Positions 25,937-36,960 of a stretch of DNA of 64,000 nt are shown in pieces. The stretch's first letter is position 1; each line of letters opens with the position of its first letter. The position numbers were made by a program, and so were the translations under genes. The stretch is taken from contig CAZTBI010000001.1 of assembly GCA_964612055.1 (NCBI GenBank), positions 5,688 to 69,687 on the forward strand. The letters run 5' to 3'. This DNA is from an uncultured Bdellovibrionales bacterium (GTDB taxonomy: Bacteria > Patescibacteriota > Minisyncoccia > Moranbacterales > UBA1568). Below the pieces are notes generated by a model that saw only the letters and a program-made list of their open reading frames with translations, did not search any database and was not told the DNA's origin.

Positions 25937-25985
25937 GTAGCTTTCCTATACTACTGAAAGACAAGGTAAATGGCAAAACCTCAAG

Positions 25986-26031
25986 CGGGCAACTCCCGTT
26001 TCCCGACCCCTTCCTATCCGATTCTTGCCGG
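25986..26031 (-). repeat. tRNA-associated repeat, copy C
   Basis: reverse complement reads CCGGCAAGAATCGGA-TAGGAAGGGGTCGGGAAACGGGAGTTGCCCG; first 15 nt are antisense to the T-arm of the adjacent tRNA-Arg(GCG). Confidence 0.75.
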
Positions 26032-26039
26032 ACACAAAC

Positions 26040-26075
26040 AAAAAAAAGAATCCCATAAAGGAATTCTTTTTTGTT
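26040..26075. terminator. bidirectional hairpin terminator
   Basis: AAAAAAGAAT/ATTCTTTTTT stem flanked by A- and T-runs, downstream of tRNA-Arg(GCG). Confidence 0.55.
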
Positions 26076-26081
26076 TCATTG

Positions 26082-26154
26082 TGCGCCCGGCAAGAATCGG
26101 ACTTACGACCTTCTGGACCGCAACCAGACGCTCTATCCACTGAGCTACGGGCGC
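26082..26154 (-). tRNA. tRNA-Arg (anticodon GCG)
   Basis: acceptor GCGCCCG/CGGGCGC, stem TCTGG/CCAGA, loop TTGCGGT; T-loop TCCGATT. Confidence 0.75.
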
Positions 26155-26166
26155 AACGCGGCACCC

Positions 26167-26736
26167 TTAAATATGCAGCAATTTCTCAATACTGTCAACC
26201 AGTCCTGGTTCATGTTTGTCCTCGGGTACAAATTGCACCAAGACCTGGTAGAGCTCTTCAACCGGCAAAGTAGTGATAGGAATATGAACATGAGAGACGA
26301 GATGACCGTTCGTTTTGATGGAAAGAAGATTGTCAAAAGGGGGTTCATCGTAGAGATGAAAGGACTCGATATCCTCGTATTCGTAGAATTCTTTGGCGGC
26401 CACAATACCTTTGGTGGTCAGGTAAAAAGGTAGGATACGTGGTTCATGACCAAGCGCCAGATAGCCCGTCATGCCGATGAGAATAAAAGTGATGGCCATG
26501 AGGGGGCTGTTGGTATAGAGCGCCCAGGCGATAATAGCAATAAGAAGAAACAGCACGACGATGCGGGACTTGGGTCCGAGTTCCAAGGGTTCGTGTTCTG
26601 GCGCATCCCAGTGAAGGAGGATTTGGCCATACTGCGGGGCAAGGGTGTGCGTGTCGCGAGGTGTCTGAGGCACCGGTGTTGGTTGAGAAGTCTTGTTTAC
26701 TTTTCCACCGTCGTGAAACGAGTGATGAGCGTTCAT
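26167..26736 (-). CDS. hypothetical membrane protein (189 aa)
   Basis: two TM helices; no recognisable motif. Confidence 0.45.
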   Translation of the reverse strand: MNAHHSFHDGGKVNKTSQPTPVPQTPRDTHTLAPQYGQILLHWDAPEHEPLELGPKSRIVVLFLLIAIIAWALYTNSPLMAITFILIGMTGYLALGHEPRILPFYLTTKGIVAAKEFYEYEDIESFHLYDEPPFDNLLSIKTNGHLVSHVHIPITTLPVEELYQVLVQFVPEDKHEPGLVDSIEKLLHI

Positions 26737-26836
26737 AGGGTAATATTGATTTTCTTTACTATACCATATTTTTACTGAAAACAGATACTCTTCACAAAGG
26801 CAGGCATGCCTGATACCATGACGAGGTAGAAAATTT

Positions 26837-26923
26837 GGAAGCGTGGCCGAGTGGTTGAAGGCAACAGTCTTGAAAACTGTCGTACCCGAAAGGGTATCGT
26901 GAGTTCGAATCTCACCGCTTCCG
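26837..26923 (+). tRNA. tRNA-Ser (anticodon TGA)
   Basis: GGAAGCG-TG-GCC-GAGTGGTTGAAGGC...CTTGAAA...long variable arm...GTGAG-TTCGAAT-CTCAC-CGCTTCC-G. Confidence 0.85.
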
Positions 26924-26930
26924 CTGTTGA

Positions 26931-26975
26931 AGTAAAGAAGGAACTACCTTGTGCAGTTCCTTCTTTACTTTTATG
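26931..26975 (+). terminator. 14-bp-stem terminator
   Basis: GTAAAGAAGGAACT/AGTTCCTTCTTTAC plus TTTTAT. Confidence 0.7.
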
Positions 26976-26977
26976 AT

Positions 26978-27025
26978 GGAGGTGAGATTCGAACAGGGAA
27001 GGGGTCGGGAAACGGGAGTTGCCCG
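26978..27025 (+). repeat. tRNA-associated repeat, copy A
   Basis: GGAGGTGAGATTCGAAC (antisense of tRNA-Ser(TGA) T-arm) + AGGGAAGGGGTCGGGAAACGGGAGTTGCCCG. Confidence 0.75.
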
Positions 27026-27136
27026 TTCGGGGTGACCCAGACTTGTTCTGGGACTAGAGGGCGGCCCGTCTCGACGAGGCAAGCCGAGGTGGAAAGCCCT
27101 ATAGAACGCAGTCCGCTTCTGCATTTGTAGTTTGTT

Positions 27137-36540: not shown

Positions 36541-36604
36541 CTGGGAGGAGTCTTGATTTTGGGGTAAAAAGTTGATAGGCTGAGTATTGTAGCGTAAAAA
36601 CCCT

Positions 36605-36691
36605 GGAGAGGTGGCCGAGTGGCTGAAGGCACCACACTGCTAACGTGGCGGGGCGTTAAAACCCTCGAGAGTTCGAATCTCTCCCTCTCCG
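36605..36691 (+). tRNA. tRNA-Ser (anticodon GCT)
   Basis: GGAGAGG-TG-GCC-GAGTGGCTGAAGGC...CTGCTAA...long variable arm...GAGAG-TTCGAAT-CTCTC-CCTCTCC-G. Confidence 0.85.
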
Positions 36692-36739
36692 CAAAGTAAA
36701 GAATGATGCTCTTGTGGCATCATTTTTGCTTTTGAGCTA

Positions 36740-36784
36740 GAGTAGATTCGAACGGGGAAAGGGTCGGAAAACGGGAGTTTTCCG
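36740..36784 (+). repeat. tRNA-associated repeat, copy B
   Basis: GAGTAGATTCGAAC + GGGGAAAGGGTCGGAAAACGGGAGTTTTCCG, homologous to copies A and C. Confidence 0.7.
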
Positions 36785-36843
36785 TGAGAGGAAAGCAGCG
36801 AAGTGCTGAGAACCGTGGGTTCTTAGAAGGAGCAAAGCGACGC

Positions 36844-36902
36844 GTTCAATCTCTCCCTCTCCGCAGTAGTAAAAAGGAATCATCTTGCGTGGTTCCTTTT
36901 TT
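36844..36902 (+). repeat. direct duplicate of tRNA-Ser(GCT) 3' end plus terminator
   Basis: GTTCAATCTCTCCCTCTCCGCA + hairpin + T-run parallels 36671-36735 with about 80% identity. Confidence 0.7.
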
Positions 36903-36960
36903 GCTTCTACCATAGACTTATAGTGACCGTGGGATTCTAGGGACTATTTTTTCAAACTTT

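Follow-up and report, generated by a model that had tools for sequence, protein, structure and literature searches.

Three short repeats in the window, the 64,000-nt stretch of DNA analysed here, are members of an apparently undescribed family of hairpin-rich, protein-less elements of ~100-220 nt that is spread across the Patescibacteria (CPR). Their units follow one order, in which a gene ending in a segment X1 is succeeded by a spacer, an antisense arm (AS), a core and X2, a copy of the gene's 3' end. Tentatively, and with several competing readings in mind, we favour the view that the repeats are tiny non-autonomous integrative elements, which bring a replacement gene 3' end together with a terminator and displace the original one.

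A repeat family downstream of tRNA and protein genes

The pattern GGGTCGG[G/A]AAACGGGAGTT matches the window with 0 mismatches at 27002-27020 (+), 36761-36779 (+) and 25991-26009 (-), three matches against 0.02 expected, and none of 100 shuffles contained three. A covariance model derived from other genomes matched these three copies only (67, 41 and 35 bits; next match 11.6), so that both searches agree with the initial annotation on the number and position of the cores. Its placement of each copy near a tRNA gene is likewise correct: copy A follows Ser-TGA, copy B Ser-GCT and copy C Arg-GCG, the tRNA being always upstream and on the same strand. An exact-pattern scan of 185,579 species genomes yielded at least 120 core loci, and almost all of those listed are Patescibacteria. 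The set of 123 copies considered below rests on these loci, with tRNAs sought within 200 nt upstream. Among the matches listed, 87 of the 123 copies have a tRNA or tmRNA gene upstream on the same strand, 25-130 nt away, while none has a tRNA neighbour on the opposite strand; the tRNA-linked copies cover more than 20 anticodon types plus one tmRNA (L099), and the orientation of the element relative to its gene is constant across the listed copies. The tRNA association expected genome-wide thus applies to most copies, and the minority behind other genes widens the finding without refuting it. Approximately 12-15 copies with the same layout follow protein genes (rplK, rplL, rpmG, a uvrB-like gene, gap) and carry the 3' ends of those genes both as an antisense and as a direct copy. 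We therefore had to abandon the earlier view of T-arms as the target, since recurrence of the layout at protein-gene ends implies that the rule is 'target 3' end' rather than 'T-arm'.

Genomes hold several copies at different targets, and copies within a MAG are more similar to each other (0.73) than random pairs (0.62). Copy number and the set of occupied tRNAs differ between genomes, and the core is near-invariant across distant Patescibacteria lineages. Comparison with Rfam gave no family for the core: the gathering-threshold scan of the window reported 9 tRNAs and no other family, the core also remained without a match when copies A and C, copy B and the intact copy A of L125 were scanned at E<=10, and eight further loci gave tRNAs only. 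No element copies were present in the viral contigs searched, the element was nowhere met in a free, circular or plasmid form, and we found nothing relevant in the literature on the core sequence or on CPR tRNA-flanking elements. Clustering of ORFs within 4 kb around 120 loci revealed no protein family in common and no linked recombinase or reverse transcriptase. As a separate observation, small GIY-YIG ORFs lie upstream of the tRNA in ~6 loci.

Within a unit, the spacer between X1 and AS is non-conserved, measures 0-85 nt and usually contains a terminator hairpin; in several loci a terminator-like hairpin also follows X2. At tRNA genes, AS is antisense to the T-loop, the 3' T-stem and the acceptor 3' strand, and at G.U positions it complements the 3' strand instead of copying the 5' strand (copy C has GCAAG rather than GTAAG; likewise L011). 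In most units, 7-8 nt separate the end of AS from GGTCGG. The conserved core of ~60-100 nt begins with the invariant GGGAAGGGGU, continues with a GNRA-capped hairpin (P2) and then with covarying hairpins, which downstream of P2 are either the variable P3 and P4 or a class-2 module. X2 at tRNAs is a direct copy of the last 13-24 nt of the tRNA, and at a score of at least 25 such a direct repeat (T-stem 3' strand, acceptor 3' strand, discriminator) was called in 63 of 85 tRNA-linked units, 37-170 nt after the core. The extent of ~45 nt originally assigned to the repeats is accordingly too short, as the unit spans 100-220 nt and ends in the direct copy of the tRNA 3' end.

The three copies in the window and their relatives

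Copy B, on the plus strand, is a complete unit. Its target is tRNA-Ser(GCT) at 36605-36692 (ARAGORN; Rfam tRNA, 53.8 bits), the last ~22 nt of which constitute X1. The spacer (36693-36739) contains a hairpin, AATGATGC..GCATCATT, that together with the T-run behind it resembles a terminator; this plus-strand terminator is our reading of the sequence, the hairpin scan reporting the structure on the minus strand only (36724-36702). The antisense arm GAGTAGATTCGAAC (36740-36753) is complementary to the T-loop and 3' T-stem of the tRNA with one mismatch. The core (36754-36826), supported by covariance model R1 (67.1 bits, E 7e-16) and by covariation counts, consists of GGGGAAAGGGU, P2 (CGGAAAAC-GGGA-GUUUUCCG, 36765-36784), UGAGAGGAAAG with a small insert, and P3 (CUGAGAACC-GUG-GGUUCUUAG, 36806-36826). 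It is followed by the 3' linker AAGGAGCAAAGCGACGC (36827-36843), in family alignments an instance of the motif GGAGC-NNN-GCGACG, and by X2, GTTC-AATCTCTCCCTCTCCGCA (36844-36865), which lacks one T-loop base and is otherwise identical to the 3' end of tRNA-Ser(GCT). A second terminator-like hairpin (36866-36907), to which the spacer is weakly similar, lies behind X2. Fold z-scores of -1.4 for the plus and -2.8 for the minus strand do not single out a functional strand.

Copy A, also on the plus strand, has lost part of its 3' end. Behind tRNA-Ser(TGA) (26837-26924; ARAGORN, Rfam), a spacer (26925-26980) with the terminator-like hairpin AAGTAAAGAAGGAACT..AGTTCCTTCTTTACTT and TTTTAT leads to the antisense arm GGTGAGATTCGAAC (26981-26994), an exact complement of GTTCGAATCTCACC in the tRNA. 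The universal module (26995-27025; 41 bits in the covariance model) comprises AGGGAAGGGGU and P2 (27006-27025, with an A.G mismatch). The class-2 body (27026-27112) consists of UUCGGGGUGACC, a hairpin and then GGACUAGAGGGCGG..AAAGCCCUAUAGAACGCAG; its GGGC/GCCC hairpin holds an extra insert, and the module is common to other loci (L001, L014, L022, L024, L026, L033, L042, L053, L083, L096, L102, L114, L120). What follows is a direct-repeat remnant, CCGCTTCTGCA (27113-27123), which marks the point where 33 nt present in L125 and L126 are missing. Since these closer relatives keep GTCCGCTTTTGGTGGAC-GAGTAGTGAGTGT-TCTCACCGCTTCTGCA here and have a complete copy A, we conclude that the window copy lost the 33 nt. 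This remnant and X2 of copy B are the direct copies of tRNA 3' ends that had been overlooked.

Copy C is a 5' fragment on the minus strand. Its target tRNA-Arg(GCG) (26081-26154; ARAGORN, Rfam scan) has an unusual T-loop, TCCGATT, and is separated from the copy by a terminator hairpin (26042-26072). The antisense arm CCGGCAAGAATCGGA (26017-26031) is complementary to TCCGATTCTTGCCGG and thus matches precisely this unusual T-loop, which makes the match locus-specific. The universal module (25977-26016; 34.7 bits in the covariance model) contains UAGGAAGGGGU, P2 (26005-25986) and CUUGAGG, beyond which the copy is truncated after ~55 nt. The adjoining sequence supplies a -35-like TTGCCA for tRNA-Arg(CCG), with a promoter-like site at 25976-25948. 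That each arm is the reverse complement of its own neighbour's T-loop and 3' T-stem, as initially proposed, therefore stands for all three copies, and the combination of a locus-specific, tRNA-derived arm with a shared module is borne out as a real repeat family.

A syntenic relative, L127, lacks copy A and the whole copy C insert. Its tRNA-Arg-GCG is identical to that of the window and the downstream promoter sequence is shared; the terminator differs from that of the filled site, which at ~82% protein identity could be ordinary divergence. Between close relatives, copies are lost, truncated or deleted without replacement. A metagenome search for empty sites with the pattern TTCGAATCTCACCGCTTCNGCATTTG gave no match, and no site with X2 plus downstream flank as the ancestral state was found. 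The 98% identical strain L121 is uninformative as an empty site, its synteny breaking exactly at 36960.

Hairpins, antisense arm and the two gene ends

P2 is an 8-bp stem, CGGGAAAC-GGGA-GUUUCCCG, with a GNRA loop, and in copies A and C it contains an A.G mismatch. The short stem described earlier is to be corrected accordingly; the G-C to A-U change in copy B is indeed compensatory. Pairs changed on both sides amount to 1 of 8 in P2 and 5 of 9 in P3. Across the helices, 96% of cells are paired and 51 double changes were counted where shuffling gave 20.5 (none of 500 shuffles came as high), while slid controls gave much lower pairing. G.U accounts for only ~2 of 459 cells in the covarying helices. 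The arms of P3 pair better with their cognate partner (-6.1 kcal/mol) than with non-cognate ones (-2.6 kcal/mol); counts of G.U versus A.C in P3 are confounded by a bulged A. The hairpins of the element are under selection, a pattern of covariation that would also fit single-stranded DNA hairpins.

The antisense arm matches X1 better than X2 in 61 of 63 tRNA units (-25.1 vs -17.4 kcal/mol), and by inspection also in L087 and L044, so that AS co-varies with X1. The helix closed by AS and X2 is nevertheless unit-specific, as non-cognate pairs reach only -11.4 kcal/mol compared to -17.4 for cognate ones. Where the target is a protein gene, nearly all differences between X1 and X2 fall on synonymous third-codon positions: all changes are synonymous in L044 and L087 (5/5), L040 has four synonymous changes and one codon that alters the residue (GTG to ACT, V to T), and stop codons are kept in X2. 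These third-position differences imply that the two copies diverged under coding constraint with separate histories, as would attP-borne and host gene ends; the same divergence would also follow if both were expressed in one genome, as in a model with an intron or an alternative 3' exon.

X2 decays, as seen from acceptor-breaking substitutions (L024, L027, L042), the 33 nt lost from copy A and the shortened copy C. A terminal CCA is present on X2 but absent from the gene in 8 of 41 loci (P ~2e-7 under a 1/64 null). The complement of AS straddles the left boundary of the duplicated segment, with 8 nt in the T-loop and 12-13 nt inside X at tRNAs; in L040 the split is 7+11 nt, in L028 4+16 nt. 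In L093 the AS target begins 17 nt into the duplicated segment, in L087 hardly any loop separates the gene end from AS and the two make up a near-perfect palindrome, and in the tRNA-Lys(CTT) loci L062, L084 and L095 AS and X2 track different acceptor sequences. Two further regularities were rejected: a duplication running through the terminator occurs only in L053, L057, L083 and window copy B, and complementarity of the junction UGNNGGAA to X2, noted by eye in L009 and L056, is inconsistent across units.

Competing readings and comparison with known systems

What kind of element would leave such a structure behind? In the integrative reading, the mobile unit would be X1, spacer, AS and core, and would recombine with the chromosome inside X. 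The rebuilt gene would owe its 3' end and terminator to the element, and the original 3' end, pushed downstream as X2, would decay there. The stem formed by AS and X may mimic the double-stranded target, and the order X ... rcX - loop - X would be the product of an integration of the CTXphi type with a single-stranded hairpin attP. Since the element is accompanied by no gene of its own, recombination would have to rely on machinery that acts in trans or is nucleic-acid-based. For this reading we count that the family is real and gene-associated, that the layout is shared, that X1 and X2 have their own histories, that AS co-varies with X1, that X2 decays, that presence varies between relatives, that one genome can contain several copies at different targets and that the hairpins are under selection. 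Against it stand the absence of a linked recombinase or reverse transcriptase and of copies in viral contigs. The reading would also require AS and X to change in concert whenever a lineage takes on a new target. With its deep conservation across Patescibacteria classes and its GNRA loops, the core is no less compatible with a functional RNA than with a recombination site, and the CCA-ended X2 suggests either that an RNA intermediate was involved or that a tRNA-like RNA end was selected for, neither of which is predicted by purely DNA-level integration. Among the three explanations offered initially, att-site remnants of a tRNA-targeting element come closest to the integrative reading, with the correction that the T-arm is not the target as such.

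A bolder version, which we regard as doubtful, takes the core as the scaffold of a nucleic-acid-guided integration or RNA-rewriting system, in which AS and X are programmable arms pairing with both target strands or with the transcript. Such a system would be able to insert at, or replace, the 3' end of practically any gene, by a trans-encoded enzyme or by catalysis of the core itself, and the CCA-bearing X2 would record mature tRNA ends captured through an RNA intermediate. 

If the overall picture of the family holds, Patescibacteria would harbour a widespread element of ~100-220 nt that has no protein gene, consists of a hairpin core with two target-copied arms and sits at the 3' ends of tRNA, tmRNA and ribosomal-protein genes while leaving these intact, hence a new kind of mobile or guide-bearing element. 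Changes of ~15-25 nt would suffice to address many targets, a property for which programmable recombinases and guide RNAs are prized. Annotation is affected as well: the units give rise to spurious ORFs and to pseudo-3'-ends of tRNAs, and copy C provides a neighbouring tRNA with promoter sequence. The region 36590-36910 of the window and positions 700-1050 of L125 offer a concrete system for asking how bacteria with reduced genomes move DNA or RNA without dedicated enzymes.

Could the units instead be RNAs acting on their own gene? That they are guide-bearing catalytic or intron-like RNAs, with AS as internal guide, the core as a small ribozyme or scaffold of a trans-acting enzyme and X2 as 3' exon, appears unlikely to us. 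The 3' part of AS would pair with the end of the upstream 'exon' (P1-like) and its 5' part with the start of X (P10-like), and splicing in cis or trans would swap X1, spacer, AS and core for X2, giving an intact tRNA or mRNA. The straddled boundary of the duplicated segment suits such a guide, as do the GNRA tetraloops, the covarying helices, the invariant purine-rich junction and the CCA encoded at X2 where the gene lacks it; synonymous-only divergence with kept stop codons is expected of two expressed alternative 3' exons, and self-splicing introns abound in the tRNA genes of Patescibacteria (PMC13011429). However, a core of ~60-100 nt lies far below known self-splicing introns, models of groups I and II gave no match at E<=10, and the last base of the T-loop (position 60) pairs with an A in AS, not with the G of the group I U.G wobble. 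The gene is complete without splicing, X2 copies of tRNAs carry acceptor-breaking changes and deletions, and the offset of 17 nt in L093 does not fit. Since a terminator usually lies between X1 and AS, read-through transcripts would moreover be rare.

With somewhat less credence, we consider a stable cellular small RNA, in which AS and X2 close a minihelix of acceptor and T-stem type and the core would have a role in the cell, for instance in protein binding or regulation. The minihelix could be processed from tRNA-operon transcripts by RNase P, RNase Z and the CCA-adding enzyme, and the resemblance to the neighbouring tRNA would stem from local duplication and concerted evolution, which does not explain the synonymous-site divergence of X1 and X2. 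A near-invariant core with covarying helices across distant Patescibacteria, the unit-specific AS:X2 helix, the terminator after X2 in several loci, the enrichment of CCA at its end and the different acceptors tracked by AS and X2 in the three tRNA-Lys(CTT) loci all accord with a small RNA. On the other hand, the real tRNA is a better pairing partner for AS than X2 in nearly every unit, copies disappear between close relatives without replacement, copy number and occupied tRNAs vary by genome, and tRNA mimicry cannot be the shared function because the protein-gene copies have no tRNA-like end.

A by-product of replication or repair is the reading we think very unlikely: fold-back or template switching at hairpin-prone gene ends (terminators, the palindromic T-arm) would yield X, rcX, X triplications, and the core would be a captured and spread sequence or a hairpin module of single-stranded DNA on which a host enzyme acts. 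Template switches have X ... rcX ... X as their signature, and L087 is a near-perfect palindrome; the scarcity of G.U pairs and the GCGAAGC-type mini-hairpins in the element fit pairing at the DNA level, d(GCGAAGC) being a known, very stable DNA hairpin. Random switching would nevertheless not set the same covarying core of 35-100 nt independently at over 100 sites, spread across many phyla-level lineages, the orientation to the gene is constant, and the coding histories of X1 and X2 are separate.

Several known identities were rejected. The 5' part GAGAUUCGAAC-GGG recalls a tmRNA or two-piece tmRNA, but ARAGORN and Rfam find none, there are three copies, and the true tmRNA in L099 is itself a target. 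HDV-like 'theta' ribozymes follow phage tRNAs (PMC10879173); here, by inspection, GGGAAGG has no P1/P1.1 partner, and there is no Rfam match. A diversity-generating retroelement (TR/VR) is discounted, as differences are not adenine-specific and no reverse transcriptase lies nearby.

MITEs and REP/BIME repeats are likewise small, protein-less, multi-copy, hairpin-rich and intergenic, whereas the terminal inverted repeats found here are locus-specific and target-derived instead of element-specific, position and orientation to the gene 3' end are strict, and the core is conserved at deep taxonomic levels. The internal guide of group I introns (P1/P10) and engineered trans-splicing ribozymes recall our units, in which a guide-like 5' arm spans a junction and precedes a structured core bearing GNRA loops and an 'exon' copy. 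As a group I intron, however, the core is much too small, lacking the P3-P9 core of at least ~200 nt; it has no match to RF00028 at E<=10 and no U.G wobble at the putative splice site, the upstream gene is already complete and followed by a terminator, and the one relevant paper deals with introns of the anticodon loop and makes no mention of the T-loop or of duplications. IS110 bridge RNAs, IS1111 seekRNAs and the OMEGA RNAs of IscB/TnpB resemble our units in joining a structured scaffold to a target complement of 14-24 nt, in matching both target strands and in their implied programmability, each target having its own arms. They differ in that no recombinase or nuclease gene (DEDD/Tnp, IscB, TnpB) is adjacent here and that our arms cover one segment on both strands, not left and right halves; moreover, IS110 and IS200/605 do not duplicate tens of target nucleotides, as the elements here do.

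Genomic islands and prophages enter tRNA and tmRNA genes by tyrosine integrases, with the T-loop as one sublocation, and their attL and attR duplicate the tRNA 3' end. As in our units, the direct repeat reaches from the T-loop or 3' T-stem to the tRNA 3' end, the replacement 3' end keeps the gene intact while the displaced copy decays, and a tmRNA (here L099) as well as protein-gene 3' ends are used. In contrast to such islands, the insert here measures ~100-220 nt and has neither an integrase nor another protein gene, an inverted target copy sits beside the conserved hairpins of the core, and more than 20 targets share a single core family. IMEX of the CTXphi type carry an attP that is a single-stranded DNA hairpin and is integrated by the host XerCD. 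Whereas these use dif, the elements here sit at tRNAs of more than 20 types, one tmRNA and several protein genes; conservation resides in the 'loop', and the 'genome' part is a spacer of 0-85 nt without replication genes. In both, inverted target-like sites (~90 nt apart in CTXphi) can fold into a target-mimicking stem, no recombinase of the element is needed, and integration leaves the order X - element - rcX - ~90-nt loop - X, which recurs as X1 - spacer - AS - core - X2 in tRNA and protein-gene loci alike, with AS:X pairing specific to each unit.

Window copies and their relatives

An exact-pattern search for the core, GGGTCGG[G/A]AAACGGGAGTT, returned exactly three matches in the window, namely copy A (27002-27020, plus strand), copy B (36761-36779, plus strand) and copy C (25991-26009, minus strand), compared to a mean of 0.02 matches in shuffled versions of the window, none of 100 of which held three. 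The same three sites were the only window hits of a covariance model built from other genomes (67 bits for copy B, 41 for copy A and 35 for copy C; next best 11.6). According to ARAGORN and Rfam, a tRNA gene lies just 5' of every copy on the same strand (Ser-TGA, Ser-GCT and Arg-GCG for A, B and C, respectively), with a terminator-like hairpin between tRNA and copy in all three cases. In each copy, the core is directly preceded by 14-15 nt that read as the reverse complement of the T-loop and 3' T-stem of the copy's own tRNA. Since the T-loop of tRNA-Arg-GCG is atypical (TCCGATT) and the arm of copy C complements this very sequence, the match is specific to the neighbour rather than to a generic T-loop. 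At tRNA G.U positions, the arm complements the 3' strand instead of copying the 5' strand (copy C and L011, a locus in another genome). The initial annotation had described three core copies, each adjoining a tRNA gene and carrying an antisense arm to that particular neighbour; as the checks of arm, core and tRNA agree, this description is correct. It had missed an 8-bp hairpin of the core with a GNRA loop (CGGGAAAC-GGGA-GUUUCCCG; P2), within which copy B shows a compensatory replacement of G-C by A-U.

Copy B extends 80 nt further than previously noted, its end being GTTC-AATCTCTCCCTCTCCGCA (36844-36865, plus strand), which duplicates the final 22 nt of tRNA-Ser-GCT in direct orientation; another terminator-like hairpin comes next. 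L121, from a 98% identical strain, shares the window sequence throughout downstream of 36960 (L121 position 1412), but upstream of that point has an MFS transporter gene instead of tRNA-Ser(GCT) and copy B, so that a rearrangement breakpoint lies just after the element. Copy A represents a second body type (class 2), found in full in two close relatives (L125 and L126, 90-97% identity), where it ends in ...GTCCGCTTTTGGTGGAC-GAGTAGTGAGTGT-TCTCACCGCTTCTGCA; compared to these, 33 nt between two CCGCTT repeats are missing from the window copy. Copy C breaks off after approximately 55 nt. Beyond it lies a promoter-like site for tRNA-Arg-CCG (25948-25976, minus strand), and its -35-like TTGCCA falls in a stretch absent at this position from the syntenic relative L127. 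The truncated copy may contribute promoter sequence to this next tRNA gene.

In L127, where gene order is conserved and the neighbouring esterase is 82% identical, both copy A and copy C are absent. Here the identical tRNA-Arg-GCG precedes a different terminator, after which the shared GTCTTTCAGTAGTATA promoter region of tRNA-Arg-CCG follows immediately; downstream of tRNA-Ser-TGA, a terminator gives way to unrelated sequence. After the latter terminator (approximately 970-990 of L127), GCGGAGAGGTGGGATTAG loosely resembles the antisense of the tRNA 3' end (expected: GCGGAGGCGGAAGGATTCG), which may be a remnant of an element since lost or a coincidence.

Distribution and anatomy of the family

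Scanning one genome per species for exact matches to GGTCGGNAAACGGGAGTTNNCCG yielded at least 120 loci, including two chance matches in other phyla (L003, L037). The remaining listed loci belong to Patescibacteria MAGs (Saccharibacteria, Parcubacteria/Paceibacteria, Moran-, Kaiser-, Zambryski-, Taylor- and Berkelbacteria) or to MAGs labelled Bdellovibrionales or Gammaproteobacteria with the same element. The elements in such 'uncultured Bdellovibrionales' or 'Gammaproteobacteria' MAGs are typical and mostly of the Moranbacteria-like class 2 (L001, L004, L024, L026, L033, L053, L069, L102; L025, L031), and these taxonomic labels may be wrong. The genome to which the window belongs is a Candidatus Moranbacteria one. 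A tRNA gene lies 25-130 nt upstream on the same strand in 87 of 123 copies and on the opposite strand in none of the 123; these upstream tRNAs cover more than 20 anticodon types, and one locus carries a tmRNA. The tRNA association thus extends beyond the window, but not to every copy: approximately 12-15 loci lack a tRNA and follow protein genes.

Among the 85 tRNA-linked units, most have an antisense arm (AS) whose end is 7-8 nt short of GGTCGG, and 63 have a clear direct repeat located 37-170 nt beyond the core and spanning the 3' T-stem, acceptor 3' strand and discriminator, then CA or CCA; in this second copy, the T-loop is swapped for a GUGAGAU-, GUGAAAU- or GUUCAAU-like sequence. With X1 as the gene's own 3' end and X2 as its downstream direct copy, the class 1 consensus reads AS, (N)GGGAAGGGGU, P2, UGNNGGAARR, an optional hairpin, P3 (xxxAACC-GWG-GGUUxxx), a 3' module (GGAGC-NNN-GCGACG or a larger hairpin) and X2. 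Class 2 carries UUUGGGGUGACC, a hairpin, GGACUAGAGGGCGGAAGCCCUAUAGAGCGCAG, a further hairpin and GAGCAGUGAGUGU in place of P3. CCA is not encoded by most of these Patescibacteria tRNA genes, which instead carry 'CA' immediately behind the discriminator (e.g. GCAAAG, ACAAAA; in the window at 26923-26926 and 36691-36694); this may be a 3'-processing signal.

Pairing of the variable hairpin P3 is kept across at least 52 distinct sequences, with -6.1 kcal/mol for cognate arms compared to -2.6 for non-cognate arms. In a 27-sequence alignment, 96% of cells were paired (88% when shuffled) and double changes numbered 51 (20.5 when shuffled; 0 of 500 shuffles as high), while pairing collapsed in slid-register controls. 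The strand that is sense to the upstream gene carries the GNRA loops (GGGA, GGAA) and the GCGAAGC mini-hairpins. As G.U pairs are nearly absent from the covarying helices and fold z-scores did not separate the two strands, the hairpins could act in RNA or single-stranded DNA.

Several copies carry additional sequence. Two distant loci (L060, minus strand, approximately 50 nt after the core; L076, minus strand) share an insertion of about 50 nt in the P3 loop (AACCGTGGG|CGACC..AATTT..hairpin..GAAGTACTCTTGTGGTG|TTyyCAG), which looks like a nested mini-insert in the element's most conserved loop. L049 and L066 hold 66-80 nt within the P3 5' strand with the conserved motif AAGGTGTAC[AT]GCT[TC]CTGTAAG[AG]AG, similar to one downstream in L060; this insert, without a match in Rfam at gathering threshold, may be another small structured module. 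A third, complete copy of T-arm and acceptor 3' strand (GGTCCCTGGTTCGAGTCCAGGCAGGCGCACA) between tRNA-Ile(TAT) and the antisense arm of L047 and L049 suggests repeated insertion or rearrangement at one site.

Protein-gene copies and divergence of the repeats

At the loci without tRNA, the element sits behind the stop codon or terminator of rplK (L019, L081, L104), rplL (L044, L087), rpmG (L040), a uvrB-like gene (L093), gap (L058) or further protein genes. The layout is that of the tRNA loci: an arm antisense to sequence near the gene end, then the core, then a direct copy of the gene's last 25-75 nt, stop codon included. X1 and X2 differ here almost only at third codon positions, with 5 of 5 changes synonymous in each of L044 and L087, four synonymous changes and one replacement codon (GTG to ACT, V to T) in L040, and a run of period-3 changes in L028. 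Such differences indicate that both diverged while coding and hence have separate histories. No other single clue to the element's origin is as strong. By inspection, the arms of L087 and L044 match the gene's own end, upstream, rather than the downstream copy; likewise, the arm pairs better with the tRNA itself than with X2 in 61 of 63 tRNA units. Downstream copies gather acceptor-breaking substitutions and deletions. Copies from the same MAG are more alike than random pairs (identity 0.73 compared to 0.62 over the variable 60 nt).

Neither a protein family common to the surroundings of element loci nor a match of the core in viral contigs was found. Small GIY-YIG-type ORFs (approximately 70-90 aa) lie directly upstream of the element-bearing tRNA on the same strand at about 6 of the at least 120 loci (L013 3616-3876, L025 89-310, L082 1212-1439, L090 2687-2911, L054 9-170, L052 1972-2079); in L040, one is found downstream. 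They could reflect general mobility near CPR tRNAs or a real link to the element.

Possible origin and relation to known systems

The repeats constitute a small, multi-copy element that is gained and lost; its hairpin core is under selection, and its inverted and direct repeats derive from the target. Its mechanism is open to several readings, among which we tentatively favour an integrative element recombining within X, as this accounts for most of the facts. Such an element would consist of a replacement 3' end (X1), terminator, AS and core; upon recombination within X, the host's own 3' end would be displaced downstream and become X2. This would explain why the gene is intact, why X1 and X2 have separate coding histories, why AS tracks X1 and why X2 decays. 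Integration of a folded single-stranded hairpin attP (CTXphi type) yields the order seen here, X ... rcX - loop - X.

The integrative model does not account for the catalyst of recombination at over 20 unrelated targets, for the way in which new AS/X pairs come about, or for the finding that X2 ends in CCA although the gene lacks it in 8 of 41 downstream copies (P ~2e-7 under a 1/64 null). This last finding hints that there is an RNA intermediate, or that a tRNA-like RNA end is under selection. A ribozyme or intron with guide and 3' exon is an unlikely reading of the units, and a stable tRNA-minihelix small RNA somewhat less likely again. That the repeats are products of template switching or a DNA hairpin appears improbable.

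The finding is real, and both more general and stranger than first noted. The initial annotation knew of no family with such an architecture, and no Rfam 15 family matched the element. The literature, thinly covered for subscription journals so that an earlier description is possible, contained no account of it, anticodon-loop group I introns of Patescibacteria being the sole related subject; as far as can be told, the element is undescribed. It has the att duplication of tRNA-integrating islands, the hairpin layout of IMEX elements, a guide-like arm across a junction resembling that of group I introns, and the scaffold with target-matched arm of bridge and OMEGA RNAs, but misses a defining feature of each.
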